From Escherichia coli (GTDB lineage: Bacteria; Pseudomonadota; Gammaproteobacteria; Enterobacterales; Enterobacteriaceae), in NCBI RefSeq assembly GCF_050920415.1, contig NZ_CP169309.1: 64,000 nt of DNA; one strand, 5' to 3'. Made by a program: the position numbers. How positions within the stretch are numbered: position 1 is the first letter of the stretch; each line of letters opens with the position of its first letter. This document shows, one piece after another, positions 36,101-42,100 of the stretch.

Positions 36101-39100
36101 CGGTGAAGCTGGCTGCTTTATGCATGGGCCTACTTTTATGGGCAATCCACTGGCCTGCGCGGCAGCAAACGCCAGCCTGGCCATTATCGAATCTGGCGAC
36201 TGGCAGCAGCAGGTAGCGACTATTGAAGTACAGCTGCGCGAGCAACTCACACCCGCACGTGACGCCGAAATGGTTGCCGATGTGCGCGTACTGGGGGCAA
36301 TCGGCGTGGTCGAAACCACTCATCCGGTGAATATGGCGGCGCTGCAAAAATTCTTTGTCGAACAGGGTGTCTGGATCCGGCCTTTTGGCAAACTGATTTA
36401 CCTGATGCCGCCCTATATTATTCTCCCGCAACAGTTGCAACGTCTGACCGCAGCGGTTAACCGCGCGGTACAGGATGAAACATTTTTTTGCCAATAACGG
36501 GAAGTCAACGTGAGGGTTTCTGGCTACACTTTCTGCAAAAAAGAAAGGAGGTTTCATGAAACTCATCAGTAATGATCTGCGCGATGGCGATAAATTGCCG
36601 CATCGTCATGTCTTTAACGGCATGGGTTACGATGGCGATAATATTTCGCCGCATCTGGCATGGGATGATGTTCCTGCGGGAACGAAAAGTTTTGTCGTCA
36701 CCTGCTACGACCCGGATGCGCCAACCGGCTCCGGCTGGTGGCACTGGGTAGTTGTTAACTTACCCGCTGATACCCGCGTATTGCCGCAGGGGTTTGGCTC
36801 TGGTCTGGTGGCAATCCCTGATGGCGTGCTCCAGACACGTACCGATTTTGGTAAAGCCGGATACGGTGGCGCAGCGCCGCCGAAAGGCGAAACCCATCGC
36901 TACATCTTTACCGTTCACGCGCTGGATGTAGAACGTATTGATGTCGATGAAGGAGCCAGCGGCGCGATGGTCGGGTTTAACGTTCATTTCCACTCTCTGG
37001 CAAGCGCCTCGATTACTGCGATGTTTAGTTAATCACTCTGCCAGATGGCGCTATGCCATCTGGTATCACTTAAAGGTATTAAAAACAACTTTTTGTCTTT
37101 TTACCTTCCCGTTTCGCTCAAGTTAGTATAAAAAAGCTGAACGCGAAACATTAAAAACCATTAATATCAATGCGTTACAATATCTTTAGTCTAAAAAATA
37201 GACTACATGATGCTACAAAACACAACATATCCAGTCACTATGAATCAACTACTTAGATAGTATTAGTGACCTGAGACAGAGCATTAGCGCAAGGTGATTT
37301 TTGTCTTCTTGCGCTAATTTTTTGTCAACGCACTGGGTTAGTTGAATTTACAACCATGCTCAGTTTGGTGATCTCTTTAGGTCGATTGTTATGGTTATGC
37401 TCTGCTTGATTCAGTGATTTTGGAATCCTGCATTTTAGTAATCATACCCATAATTTTATGCCTAAGCTTTTCCATTGGGTTTTCGATTAGATAAAAACTT
37501 ACCGCCCCAACTAAGATTGATGCTACCATCGTTGCTATATACATATAGAAACTGATTCCTACGTACCACACACCCATTGCTAGAATCAGGAAGTGCCATA
37601 GGTATATAGAGAAGCTCCATTTACCAATGTAAGACATTAACGGTGTTGACAGAGCCCAAGCAAATACACCTTCTCCATAGCTCATTAGCAGAACAATGAG
37701 TCCAAATATTGGCGCATAGAAAATAAATTTGTTGAGAACCCATCCATCAGTAAACCCACCAGTTAACTTCCACATAACTTTAGGCAGTGCAATAAGCATT
37801 GATACAATAAAGAACAGGAAGGCTATATCAGACAACTCTTGACCAATTTTAAGGAAATTATCGTGATAGAGAAATGCTGCAATCATTCCGCAAGCAAACA
37901 GTGGGAAATACCACATCACCATTCCGCCATACGCACTATCCATCGCAGGGTACAATCCCTGTAGCAATACAGCCAGTGCGAAAATAAGGAATGCCGCTGC
38001 TTTTCCATTGTACACTTTTTGAATTGCGACACCAGCATACGCAAAGAATGGAAGTATGAAGTAGAATTTATACTCAATTGGTATTGTCCAGAAATGAAGC
38101 ACGGCCTCTTTCATCGTTATGATTGAGATTGCCGTATTCAAATCAAAATACCCAAAATATGAATACACGAGAACAGCTATTGCGAACACCGGAAGGATTC
38201 TCATTGTTCTTCCAAGGAAATAACTTAAAAGAGACCGCCAGGAAAATCCGGTAGAAATAAATCTACTGGTTAGCAAAAATGCGCTGAGAACAAAGAATAT
38301 CCAAACACCAAACTGTGAACTTCCACCAAGCATAACCTCATACTCATGAAAATATATTCCTGTAGCGTGGGCTATTATTACAAGGAATACCGCTATTGCC
38401 CTTAGTCCATCAAGAGACTTGATTTTACCTTTCATTTCTTTCCCAGATATGGAGTGAACATCTGCGAAAATGTAGCACATTTCAAGGTAAACAAGAAGCG
38501 CATCCATGCGCATTTTCATCACCCTGCCTTGGTGTATGTCCAGTTAAATGTTGTTGTTCCCTGGCTTGTGATGGTTACAATCCTTCCTGTCACTGTAAAT
38601 GATATCAACCCTCCTGACTTAAGCGGAGTTAAAGTAAGTGTTGTTCCGTCCCACATGGCAAGCTGAAGCGAAGAGAAATTTGTTCCACTGCTTTCTGCCC
38701 AAACGCTTATCAGGTACATCCCTTGGCTATTTGGCAGTTCAAACAACGTAGTTGCTACGTTAGCTGCAACAGCCTGAGTTCCTTTCGCTGTGTACACTGC
38801 TGGCAACTGATTACCTGCAGAGCTTCGTGATTCAACATATGAGCCTGAAGTTTGCGTCCCAGTTAATGAGCAGTCAGTAAATACTCCATTCCCTGTGCTG
38901 TAAGTTGATATTACAGGAGTCCCACCAGTCGGAGCCTTAAACCGGCATCCCTCAGCAATTATTTTTGCTGTTGAGTCTGTCAGCAATGTGTTTGGGTATC
39001 CAGAGCCAGTGTAGGTTATTGATTCGCTATCAAGGAAGCTATCGGTACTTGATTTTATGTTAACAATGCTTGTGCCTGTTGCAAAGATAAATGCTGCTGT

Positions 39101-42100
39101 CCCACTCCCCGTTGTTTGCATTGAGTTTCCATGCCCGGCCAATCCTGATATATGGGCAATAGTATCATTAAGTTTTATATACGACGCAGTAATTCCATTT
39201 GTATTTTTTATTATATTAGACTCACCATCATACCCTGTAATAGTAAGACACTTACATCCAGAAAAATATAACCCTGAGGAATCAAATGTATATTGCGACC
39301 CGTCAACTGTGATCTGGTCTCCTGCACAGTTTATTAGCTGAGGAGACAGGCAATTTACAACATACCATGCCTGTGCTGCATCCAGCACATAACATGTATC
39401 CCACTGTATTGTCGTTCCGTTCGCCTTATAGAAACCATGTGCAACTCTCCTCGCCCATACCTGGGTATACTTTGTTAGGTAATTTCCAGAGTCATCATAT
39501 ATGGCCCACCATGCACCATCAACCTCAACATTTTTAATGTGCATAACGCCTGGTGAAGTAGTTCCTCCATCAATTAGAATGCCAATTTTACCATCATTGC
39601 CAGTAGGTGATGTAGGGCGTCCTCCATCGTAAAAAATATAGACATTTTCAATATTTATTGTATTAAACGCTGCGTGGTAATGGAAACAAGCTATATTTCC
39701 TATTACTGCTATGAAAGTTTCCGGCCTATTTATGTTGCTGTTTGTTTCGCCATTTATTGTGCAGTTTGAATTCATCTCTATCGTTGCATTTACGAAGTAA
39801 GTTCCAGATGTCAATAATACATTCCGCCCTGTATTAATTGCGGCCTGTATGCCTGCATAGTCAAGAGACTGAGTTAGTGATGTTACGAATGGATAAACAG
39901 CCTGCGCCGCTGATAGTGTGGAGAATTTCTCGCTGAGTGGATGCAGAGTTCCGTCAGCTGTTGCACCGAAATCCTTGGCTGAAATGAAGTTGGTATTTTT
40001 ATCATGTTGAGTTAAAGCTATTGAGCCGATATATGGCTGCTTAACTGCAACTAGTGCATCTCCCATTCCATCAGCATCGCTTTCTAACTGCTGCTTAAAC
40101 TGATCAGGGTCATACTTCAGCACATTAGGAAAATAGAACTGCCGTGCACCATACGCATTATATACAGCCATAGAATGGCCTTGCACAGTTACGAACTTGG
40201 CAATCTGTCCGTTATATACAGGGTAACCAGCGGCGTTAATGATGATTGGTTGCGAAACAGGAACGTGAGAGCCGTCTTCGTTCTCTACATAAACCTGAAT
40301 CTGGTTTTCTGGATTTACTGGGTACGTGTCAATTTTACCGATATAAATTTTGCCATTGGCAACCGCTTTAAAAGAACGCGCCATAGTGAAGAGTTGCGAA
40401 GGCATGCTTACCACAACATTTGCGGTGATATCTGACATTTCATTGCTCCAGACGAATGATATGATGCAACCATGATGTGATTGCATACCGAAATGGTACT
40501 ATTGAGTATTTATCCAGTAGGTTACGATGCCATTCCACCCAACTGGTGAGGCATCAAGGATGTACAGCAAATACGACGAGGCGCAGTTTCACTTGAGACT
40601 TCCGCATGAACTCCACGCGAAAATTAAGCAGCGTGCGAAGATGAATAACAGGTCGCTGAACTCAGAGATAATTGCAGCGATTGAAGAATCATTGGATAAA
40701 CAAAGCTCTGCATCAGTTTACATTGACGATGCAGAGCGTATGGCAGAACAACAATCTGATATGGTTAAGAAAATGGTTTTTGAGACGCTCAAAGAGCTAT
40801 ATAAAAAAGACAGCAGCTAACTATCAGTTACGGAGGATTTATGCAAAGAGATATGCTGAATATTGCGTTCTACATATTTGGTTTTTGCACGTTCCTGGTG
40901 TTTGCGAAGCTATTCTGACAACGCATCAGACTTGGCACCTTGAGTCAGGGCGTTAATGGCCTTTTGCGCCTGCTGCATGGCTTTCTCAAACGCTGTTGAT
41001 CCGCGTGGGGTGTTTGCCATTCGGAGCATTGCATTTCTGAATGGCTCGCTCTCATAGGCGCGAGTAAGAAGTCCGTAGCTTACCGCTGCGCCAGTTGTCG
41101 CCGGGTTCATTGCCGTCCCATATCCGATAATGAACGGGATGGTTTGCTGCCCTGTTGGTGTTGTTACTGCTGCTTTTGCAGCCTGCTGCGTGGATTGCAG
41201 GTAGTTTTTTAATCCTTTCAGATAAGCAGCGTCCTGCCCCTTAAATGTGATGCCAGTCTGGTTTTGCAGGATATTAAGCTGCCGAAGGAACTGGTCAGGG
41301 GATCCACCTGATTTCTCCATCGCCTTTCCAATGATGCCATTGCGCATTTGCGCCCTGCCAACACGACCAACTGAGTTATACAGCGTCTTAATTTCCGATT
41401 TGTTCTTGCTGAATAGCATGTTGTTGACAACTTCCGGCGTCAGGTCGCCTTTCATGAGAACATTCTTCAGCCTGGTATTCTTTAGTTTCGCCGCTTCGTC
41501 AGCGTAGACGGCATTGGCCTGCTGATATTTACGGAGAGTATCGTTGCCAAGATTCTGACCAATGGCACCATTGATATCGTCTGTCATTGCCTTGTAAACG
41601 CGCTGAATGGCAGCATCGGAACGGTTTGGTAACACTGATCGTTCCCCCTTCACGTCAATTCTGAACTGGCTGCGCAGATCGCTTAATTGCTTCAAATCCA
41701 GATTTACCGGACCATCAGGACCAGCATTGCGAACAAGCTCATCACGATAGGACTGAAGTTTTGAAATAGTCTCGTTATCGGCGACCTTACCAAGCTTCTG
41801 CAGGTTAGATATTTCTGTATCAATCTGCTGAATTGCTCGAGCAGGCTGGATATTGACTCCCGCCATTGCATTCTGAACCTGCTCAAGACGGTTCCCTGCA
41901 GCACGACGAATTCCTGATGTTTTCGCTTTAAGGCTGTCAATAACAACAGCTGGATCATACTCACCGAATTTATCAGCAAATCTCTGCACCAACTGGCTTC
42001 TCGCTTCCTGTTGCGTTGCTCTCATTCCGCTTGTGCCAGCCAGGGGGATATTTTCCGCTGTCGTCTGCGCCATTTTCCCGACGCGGGAAGTAGGCTGTAA

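Follow-up and report, generated by a model that had tools for sequence, protein, structure and literature searches.

Which receptor is recognised by the tailspike of a P22-like prophage when only its head-binding N-terminus resembles P22, and what is the role of the membrane acyltransferase that is encoded directly behind it? The question is raised by a 64,000-nucleotide stretch of Escherichia coli DNA (contig NZ_CP169309.1 of assembly GCF_050920415.1; in the following called the window), where a P22-like (Lederbergvirus-type) prophage occupies the sequence from a lambda-type att core through to the window end. An earlier reading of the sequence alone had proposed two genes at 37395-40438, one for a tailspike with an O-antigen receptor different from that of P22, the other for an integral-membrane acyltransferase located between this tailspike and the att core. 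Both open reading frames (ORFs) were found at these positions (Table 1). According to the analysis presented here, the tailspike probably recognises the O2/O50 O-antigen, and the acyltransferase, a member of the acyltransferase-3 (AT3) family, probably O-acetylates the same O-antigen and thereby masks the receptor.

The tailspike and the O-antigen of its hosts

The tailspike begins with a P22-type head-binding domain, as the sequence-only reading had stated, and the residues beyond this domain have no sequence relation to P22, which had also been noticed. Residues 1-166 match gp14 of phage Sf6 (7sg7; E=8.7e-73), and over residues 1-163 the identity with the tailspike of Sf6 is approximately 74%. 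When the PDB was searched by sequence, the N-terminus matched the head-binding domains of Sf6 and P22, and past approximately residue 170 only a short stretch of the LKA1/phi297 tailspike was matched. A Pfam search with the remaining 526 amino acids retrieved no family, and an NCBIfam search retrieved none for the tailspike. In an AlphaFold (AF2) model of residues 114-639, which was computed from 38 homologues and has a pLDDT of 89.7, this receptor-binding domain (RBD) is predicted to form a long parallel beta-helix followed by a C-terminal beta-sandwich. Foldseek detected 97 PDB matches to the model at E<=0.001, and the top ones are phage tailspikes or depolymerases (phi297, LKA1, Sf6, and Acinetobacter phages) with at most 14% identity and TM-scores below 0.5. 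The fold class of the modelled RBD is clear. Within the RBD family, D374 never varies, and E406 and D315 each occur in at least 95% of the sequences; in comparison with Sf6, HK620, and P22, these residues are candidate catalytic carboxylates. The N-termini of RBD homologues are of the Head_binding, Tail_spike_N, or T7-tail type or belong to no recognised type, and relatives with 37-40% identity occur in the lytic phages SU57, JeanPiccard, and T145P1. A peculiarity of the window copy is Tyr at codon 39 (window 40324); the five other copies without exception carry Asp. Asp is also found at the equivalent position of P22 and Sf6, within the IDTDPVNP motif of the head-binding domain. Two further residues, N94 and R99 (window 40159 and 40143), occur in the window tailspike only.

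The receptor can be narrowed down from the hosts. The cassette consisting of the tailspike and AT3 genes is present in 7 of 5426 complete E. coli genomes, at 98-99.5% identity. As a literature search on the carrier strains yielded resistance and multilocus sequence typing data only and no serotype, the O-antigen clusters were located directly in the genomes. In strain YZLc1-3, wzx and wzy of this cluster are annotated as 'O2/O50 family'. Its wzx-wzy segment occurs in 132 of the 5426 complete genomes, with four more cassette carriers among the matches listed, and the last two carriers, FT130 and PSJ-23, turned out to be O2/O50 too when examined directly. The O2/O50 cluster is present in 7/7 cassette genomes versus 132/5426 overall (Fisher p=4e-12). 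If only the three insertion sites of the seven typed genomes are counted as events (argW, torT/torS, and a site beside a P4-like element), p is 1.4e-5; with the att-lambda copy of the window as a fourth event, whose O-type is inferred from a host-flank twin, p is approximately 3e-7. The twin, strain MFDS1022581, is O2/O50, and it is 100.0% identical to the window over the 13.1 kb of host flank that end inside the att core. The cassette resides at argW in FT130 and in a deposited prophage (611R6, see below), at torT/torS in PSJ-23 and EFF60, beside the P4-like element near pao/ykgJ in YZLc1-3, and at att-lambda in the window. These four different chromosomal sites argue for repeated acquisition restricted to O2/O50. 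Moreover, an RBD subtype of 47% identity was followed to two of its carriers, ETEC1730 and FT130, and both are O2/O50. Since the O2/O50 cluster is found in all cassette genomes and in the flank twin, the receptor of the tailspike is most likely the O2/O50 O-antigen, which agrees with the different receptor envisaged from the sequence alone. O2 and O50 have a common rhamnose-rich main chain, to which O2 adds a Fuc3NAc branch (PMC7685785).

Two annotation details concern the O2/O50 clusters themselves. The gene fdtC, coding for a Fuc3N acetyltransferase, is called as two pseudogene fragments by RefSeq in every O2/O50 cluster that was inspected (L022, 9897-10364; also L027, L028, L031, and L086). 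A true pseudogene, which would imply an O50-like chemotype of the carriers, was rejected because an intact 155-aa, TTG-initiated ORF spans the region; the call is probably an annotation artefact. In ETEC1730, a porcine enterotoxigenic E. coli, wzy and the DUF1972 glycosyltransferase gene of the cluster are annotated as frameshifted (L086, 11462-14409).

The acyltransferase and its linkage to the receptor-binding domain

The AT3 ORF (37395-38522, minus strand) matches the Pfam family Acyl_transf_3 (PF01757) with E=1.3e-23, covering positions 2-322 of the 326 in the model, and the PHROG family phrog_3333 'O-acetyltransferase' with E=1e-37. Its best matches among phage protein families are O-acetyltransferase or O-antigen acetylase PHROGs, and its closest named phage relatives are O-antigen acetylases of Salmonella phages; none of the curated NCBIfam models names the protein. 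The 374-aa product of the RefSeq-type annotation would start at an ATG at 38519 and overlap the tailspike stop. This start, like the ORF limit at 38522, was rejected. Homologues are 338-355 aa long, and an 88%-identical copy in Enterobacter has no in-frame upstream ATG; the start was therefore placed at the ATG at 38435. Judged by these sequences, the protein probably consists of 346 aa, and the two genes probably do not overlap and are separated by a spacer of 83 nt.

The R-X10-H motif of the protein (R12...H23 in LDGLRAIAVFLVIIAH) is invariant in an alignment with Oac of Sf6 and the AT3 part of GtrC of the Salmonella prophage BTP1. Other AT3 residues that are present include R76-T-M-R79, P82, W116-T117, E121, S274/Y278, and E318, as well as S51, which is followed by Ala instead of the Gly of the SG motif. 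Compared with the residues that are experimentally essential in Oac and OafB and with the published definitions of R-X10-H, absolutely conserved in transmembrane helix 1, and of RXXR, located where helix 3 reaches the cytoplasm (PMC9833829, PMC3467182), the predicted protein is full-length and keeps every essential position. Truncation and motif loss, which had been named as arguments against a functional enzyme, were thus looked for and not found. Approximately ten hydrophobic segments in the hydropathy profile and an all-helical AF2 model (pLDDT 83.7) predict about ten transmembrane helices, consistent with the integral-membrane protein expected at this place. Neither a profile search nor Foldseek on the AF2 model found a related solved structure, and the AT3 fold is described as lacking an experimental structure (PMC9833829).

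AT3 copies that are 52-100% identical to the window copy always lie 3' of an RBD of the same family (family A; 46-100% identical). The carriers are E. coli, Enterobacter asburiae, Citrobacter, and metagenomes, and the RBD is anchored by a Head_binding domain, a Tail_spike_N domain, or an unrelated 208-aa domain. Relative to the window copies, the AT3 and RBD are 88% and 74% identical in Enterobacter asburiae, where the anchor is the unrelated 208-aa N-terminus, 68% and 71% in Citrobacter, and 52% and 69% in a metagenome contig, the latter two with Tail_spike_N. In the viral contig L035 the values are 96% and 74%, and the anchor is of the Tail_spike_N type and aligns over its full length with the tailspike N-termini of Citrobacter and L011. 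In the viral contig L034 they are 97% and 46%, and the anchor of the 726-aa protein is unrecognised. A sister AT3 clade (44% identical) is found behind unrelated RBDs in other E. coli prophages, and the names of its cluster members reveal no link to serotype or O104. In these comparisons the AT3 clade tracks the RBD family, and not the phage type, over at least three unrelated virion anchors and three genera.

Proposed function, alternatives, and the state of the prophage

In the function proposed here, the P22-type head-binding domain would anchor the tailspike to the virion, and the beta-helix domain would bind, and probably cleave, the rhamnose-rich O2/O50 O-antigen. By analogy with Oac and OafB, the AT3 protein would carry acetyl groups from cytoplasmic acetyl-CoA via a 10-helix pore to the O-antigen at the membrane's periplasmic face. 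The acetylated O-antigen would be a masked receptor, and the lysogen would resist superinfection by phages of the same specificity. Masking would also shield the lysogen from its own tailspike and end the trapping of progeny. As an apparently autonomous moron, the AT3 gene could be expressed even from a prophage that no longer makes virions.

Several observations weigh against this proposal. A review in which the repeat units of O2 and O50 are described makes no mention of O-acetylation (PMC7685785), and the carriers of the cassette are phylogenetically non-independent samples. The Foldseek matches of the RBD are generic tailspikes of low identity and TM-score, and the protein may be a hydrolase, a lyase, or one that binds only. 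The linkage of RBD and AT3 holds at the family level and is no strict co-inheritance, as the values for L034 illustrate. A P22-like prophage with a 47%-identical RBD (L014, 7737-11064; E. coli contig JAIQNZ010000041) carries other cargo in the AT3 slot, namely a reverse transcriptase (RVT_1) and an SMC/AAA ATPase that form a retron-like defence pair. Another RBD relative of 47% identity is paired with a convergent 619-aa acyltransferase instead. This arrangement is found in a second prophage of FT130 (L084, chromosome 1281247-1285397), where the RBD subtype is part of a 751-aa tail protein, and this O2/O50 strain, with its cassette remnant at argW, has two RBD/acyltransferase pairs in one host. 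A sigma-70 promoter scan called no promoter in the spacer between the tailspike and AT3 genes (38436-38518). Finally, there is no signal of purifying selection in the AT3 gene, and its intactness may reflect recent acquisition. Among six cassette copies the RBD is almost invariant, and the AT3 gene has six variable sites (four nonsynonymous and two synonymous), which are too few for showing selection.

A wider interpretation, which we offer tentatively and with some doubt, is that the family-A RBD and the acyltransferase form a portable 'recognise-and-mask' cassette for O2/O50, which moves among unrelated phage body plans and among genera by a swap of the N-terminal anchor alone and is selected by the host. 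Host selection would then preserve the cassette while the prophage around it decays, either because the O-antigen is varied or because the acetyltransferase serves as an antidote against the co-resident depolymerase. The RBD subtypes (46-74% identical), which in O2/O50 strains such as FT130 are paired with different acyltransferases, would be the outcome of an arms race over how this one O-antigen is acetylated. If true, such a race could give rise to antigenic heterogeneity in serogroup O2 that has gone unrecognised.

Alternatively, the AT3 protein might acylate another envelope glycan, such as enterobacterial common antigen, colanic acid, capsule, peptidoglycan, or periplasmic glucans, and the adjacency to the tailspike would merely reflect the usual moron slot that ends the late operon. 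AT3 proteins indeed have many acceptors (PMC9558356), and the silence of the curated NCBIfam models, the retron-like cargo in the slot of a related prophage, and AT3 relatives below approximately 40% identity, which do not adjoin tailspikes in viral contigs, would all be in line with such a function. In the subfamily of at least 40% identity, however, a tailspike precedes the gene in every context with enough upstream sequence. In addition, the AT3 clade goes with the RBD family in three genera and on three types of anchor, the top PHROGs are O-acetyltransferases or O-antigen acetylases, and the nearest named phage relatives are O-antigen acetylases. A different acceptor is thus unlikely, and the O-antigen itself is the preferred candidate.

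In all cassettes compared, the AT3 gene is co-directional with the tailspike gene and begins 78-85 nt past its stop. A GC hairpin with a T-run lies directly 3' of the tailspike stop in 7/7 cassettes compared (the window and six others), and in all seven it is followed, approximately 20 nt further on, by TGnTAnAnT or TATGAT and then by a Shine-Dalgarno-like sequence. In the copies from Citrobacter and the metagenome this hairpin has the form of a canonical intrinsic terminator; in the window it is weaker (5-bp stem, interrupted T-run). By this layout, the AT3 gene looks like a self-contained moron. With a terminator-like hairpin in front, a -10-like element, and a ribosome-binding site that belongs to it alone, the gene could be expressed from a prophage unable to form virions. 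One could also imagine that the AT3 gene is a late gene, which is transcribed by read-through from the tailspike and functions in lytic growth only, for example to keep progeny from sticking to debris, and which is silent in a defective prophage. Its location on the same strand as the last late gene and close to it, the weak hairpin of the window, the overlap of the two ORFs in the RefSeq-style annotation, and the lack of a promoter call are compatible with this scenario. What makes it improbable are the canonical terminator of the Citrobacter and metagenome copies, the -10-like motif in every cassette, and the retention of the AT3 gene in remnants without the late operon and its activators. 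Moreover, the counterparts oac of Sf6 (according to the annotation of its record) and gtrC of BTP1 (PMC4413052) are expressed in lysogens. We infer that the AT3 gene may be expressed independently in the lysogen as well.

That the prophage might be defective had been allowed for, and its sequence indicates that it cannot be fully functional. Its late genes are 96-98% identical to those of phages IME10 and APC_JM3.2, and compared with IME10 there are single-base indels in the genes for the large terminase (terL; near 53971 and 53471), the portal protein (near 51199), and gp7 (near 44866). Sequencing errors are an unlikely cause of these frameshifts, considering the perfect identity of the host flank to the finished genome of MFDS1022581. 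Despite the broken terL, portal, and gp7 genes, the tailspike and AT3 genes are both intact in the window. In PSJ-23 and FT130, where the prophage has shrunk to deletion remnants of approximately 10 kb, the two genes are intact too, and in EFF60 an IS5 element is inserted just past the AT3 gene and leaves it untouched. It is very unlikely that the two genes persist without function in a prophage that decayed recently and that the O2/O50 association stems from clonal ancestry: although the defects of the prophage, the 98-99.5% identity of the cassette copies, the near-neutral ratio of nonsynonymous to synonymous AT3 changes, and the apparently common insertion site of 4/7 carriers would fit this explanation, the copies examined occupy four chromosomal sites, the divergent RBD subtype is confined to O2/O50 in the two genomes checked, and no copy of either gene contains a frameshift or stop whereas neighbouring genes are deleted or broken.

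Chromosomal setting, significance, and comparison with known systems

The genes bioF, bioB, bioA, and ybhB (36556-37032) identify the left part of the window as E. coli chromosome. The att core, which lies 257 bp from the end of the AT3 gene, reads TTAGTATAAAAAAGC, the reverse complement of GCTTTTTTATACTAA. In MFDS1022581, ybhB is directly followed by ybhC, which represents an empty att-lambda, and the divergence from the window starts right past the core. Window positions 37120-37364 are 89-97% identical to lambda/434-type attP regions, where they are labelled 'attP core' and 'terminator'. The approximately 200 bp 3' of the AT3 gene (37192-37394), which are part of the lambda-type attP arm and the tI/sib hairpin, accompany the cassette elsewhere (L001, L017, L023, and L024). 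In prophages at argW, torT/torS, and other sites this stretch is a functionless relic, and its presence at such sites suggests that the cassette spread from an att-lambda-type phage. On its other side, the tailspike gene is the last gene of the late operon and follows gp16-, gp20-, and gp7-like ORFs on the same strand (40910-44996). An ORF for an Arc/Mnt-type ribbon-helix-helix protein (40527-40820, plus strand), divergent from the tailspike gene, is the sole remainder of an immI-like region; the related prophage 611R6 has arc and ant at this place.

Table 1. Positions of the cassette, its spacer elements, and the adjoining att region in the window.
Feature	Position	Strand	Basis
Lambda-type att core, prophage/host junction, attR-type (P arm on prophage side)	37123-37137	.	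Exact 15-nt lambda core
Lambda/434-like attP P-arm region	37138-37364	plus	Identity to annotated attP regions
sib/tI-like hairpin ATTAGCGCAAG...CTTGCGCTAAT with T-run	~37283-37325	plus	Sequence reading, inside P-arm region
AT3-only membrane acyltransferase (predicted), 346 aa (MKGKIKSLDGLR...)	37395-38435	minus	PF01757, phrog_3333, homologue lengths, motifs
Intergenic spacer, 83 nt	38436-38518	minus	Between tailspike stop and AT3 start
Shine-Dalgarno-like GGGA	38441-38444	minus	Sequence reading
Extended -10-like TGcTACATT	38469-38477	minus	Reading of conserved motif
Spacer hairpin GCGCATGGATGCGC + TTCTTGTTT	38498-38511	minus	Terminator/hairpin scan
Tailspike ORF, 639 aa	38519-40438	minus	P22-like start at 40438, inside ORF 38519-40486 (minus)
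Tailspike receptor-binding part, aa 114-639: predicted linker, right-handed parallel beta-helix, C-terminal beta-sandwich	38519-40099	minus	AF2 model
Tailspike head-binding domain, aa 1-113	40100-40438	minus	Pfam Head_binding PF09008, E=3.3e-64

Among extraintestinal and avian pathogenic E. coli, O2 is a major serogroup, and it is included in candidate conjugate vaccines based on O-antigens. The cassette is found in approximately 5% of the complete O2/O50 genomes (7/132). If the AT3 protein O-acetylates the O2 repeat, it would cause variation in antigenicity and phage susceptibility that is invisible to in-silico serotyping based on wzx/wzy. The RBD (residues 114-639) might serve as an O2/O50-specific reagent, either for binding or as a depolymerase, in typing, in engineered tailocins, which have been made for O104 (PMC3303846), and in the choice of therapeutic phages. 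The cassette also illustrates clearly how a tailspike RBD and a predicted receptor-modifying enzyme move jointly among phage types.

Among known systems, Sf6 with its tailspike (gene 14) and oac is also a P22-like phage, in which a head-binding tailspike with a rhamnose-rich O-antigen receptor is directly followed, in the region before int/att, by an AT3-only acetyltransferase of similar size, and the R-X10-H, RXXR, WT, and S..Y motifs are common to both enzymes (PMC3467182). The sequence-only reading had likened the position of the AT3 gene to that of oac. This holds for the slot after the tailspike but not for the details: oac is located on the opposite strand (convergent), where a separate promoter and terminator are annotated for it, int is placed between this gene and attP, and Oac is only about 21% identical to the window protein. 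The phages also differ in the type of integrase and the integration site (argW for Sf6, att-lambda for the window), and their RBDs are unrelated in sequence. BTP1 likewise combines a tailspike with an adjacent O-antigen acetyltransferase acting on the same rhamnose-containing O-antigen. Its GtrC guards the O-antigen of the lysogen against the own tailspike and blocks superinfection (PMC4413052), which by analogy makes BTP1 the best mechanistic model for the window pair. A difference is that gtrC of BTP1 codes for a family 2 GtrC with AT3-SGNH architecture, whereas the window protein is AT3-only and encoded co-directionally with the tailspike. The convergent arrangement of Sf6 and BTP1 was not found in the window, and we regard it as a variant of gene order and not as a functional criterion. 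As in serotype-conversion modules, the AT3 gene is a putative modification gene that sits beside the tailspike gene where the prophage adjoins att.

An equal architecture is known from a P22-like prophage remnant in E. coli O104:H4, where a tailspike is followed by a co-directional putative O-antigen acetylase (EGR74046). This remnant has retained both genes after losing most others (PMC3303846); it differs in O-type and RBD, is comparable to the window by its architecture, and the function of its acetylase is putative. O-antigen modification genes behind receptor-binding proteins have also been mentioned for Lederberg- and Uetakeviruses (PMC10408124). The same cassette as in the window is contained in 'Escherichia phage vB_EcoP-611R6' (ON470589), with 99.2% identity of the tailspike and 99.7% of the acyltransferase. 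611R6 is a prophage that was extracted in silico, in a prophage survey, from the genome of a clinical E. coli; its record labels the products 'tailspike' and 'Peptidoglycan/LPS O-acetylase' and assigns no receptor or function. In contrast to the window prophage, it has a CPS-53-type integrase and occupies argW, and it also differs in the type of its genes for head, terminase, and portal. Thus, the cassette sequence is already public in GenBank, and this kind of module is already known from Sf6 oac, BTP1 gtrC, and the O104:H4 remnant. Added here are the assignment to O2/O50, the corrected start of the AT3 gene, its moron-like layout, and the joint movement of the RBD family and the AT3 clade.

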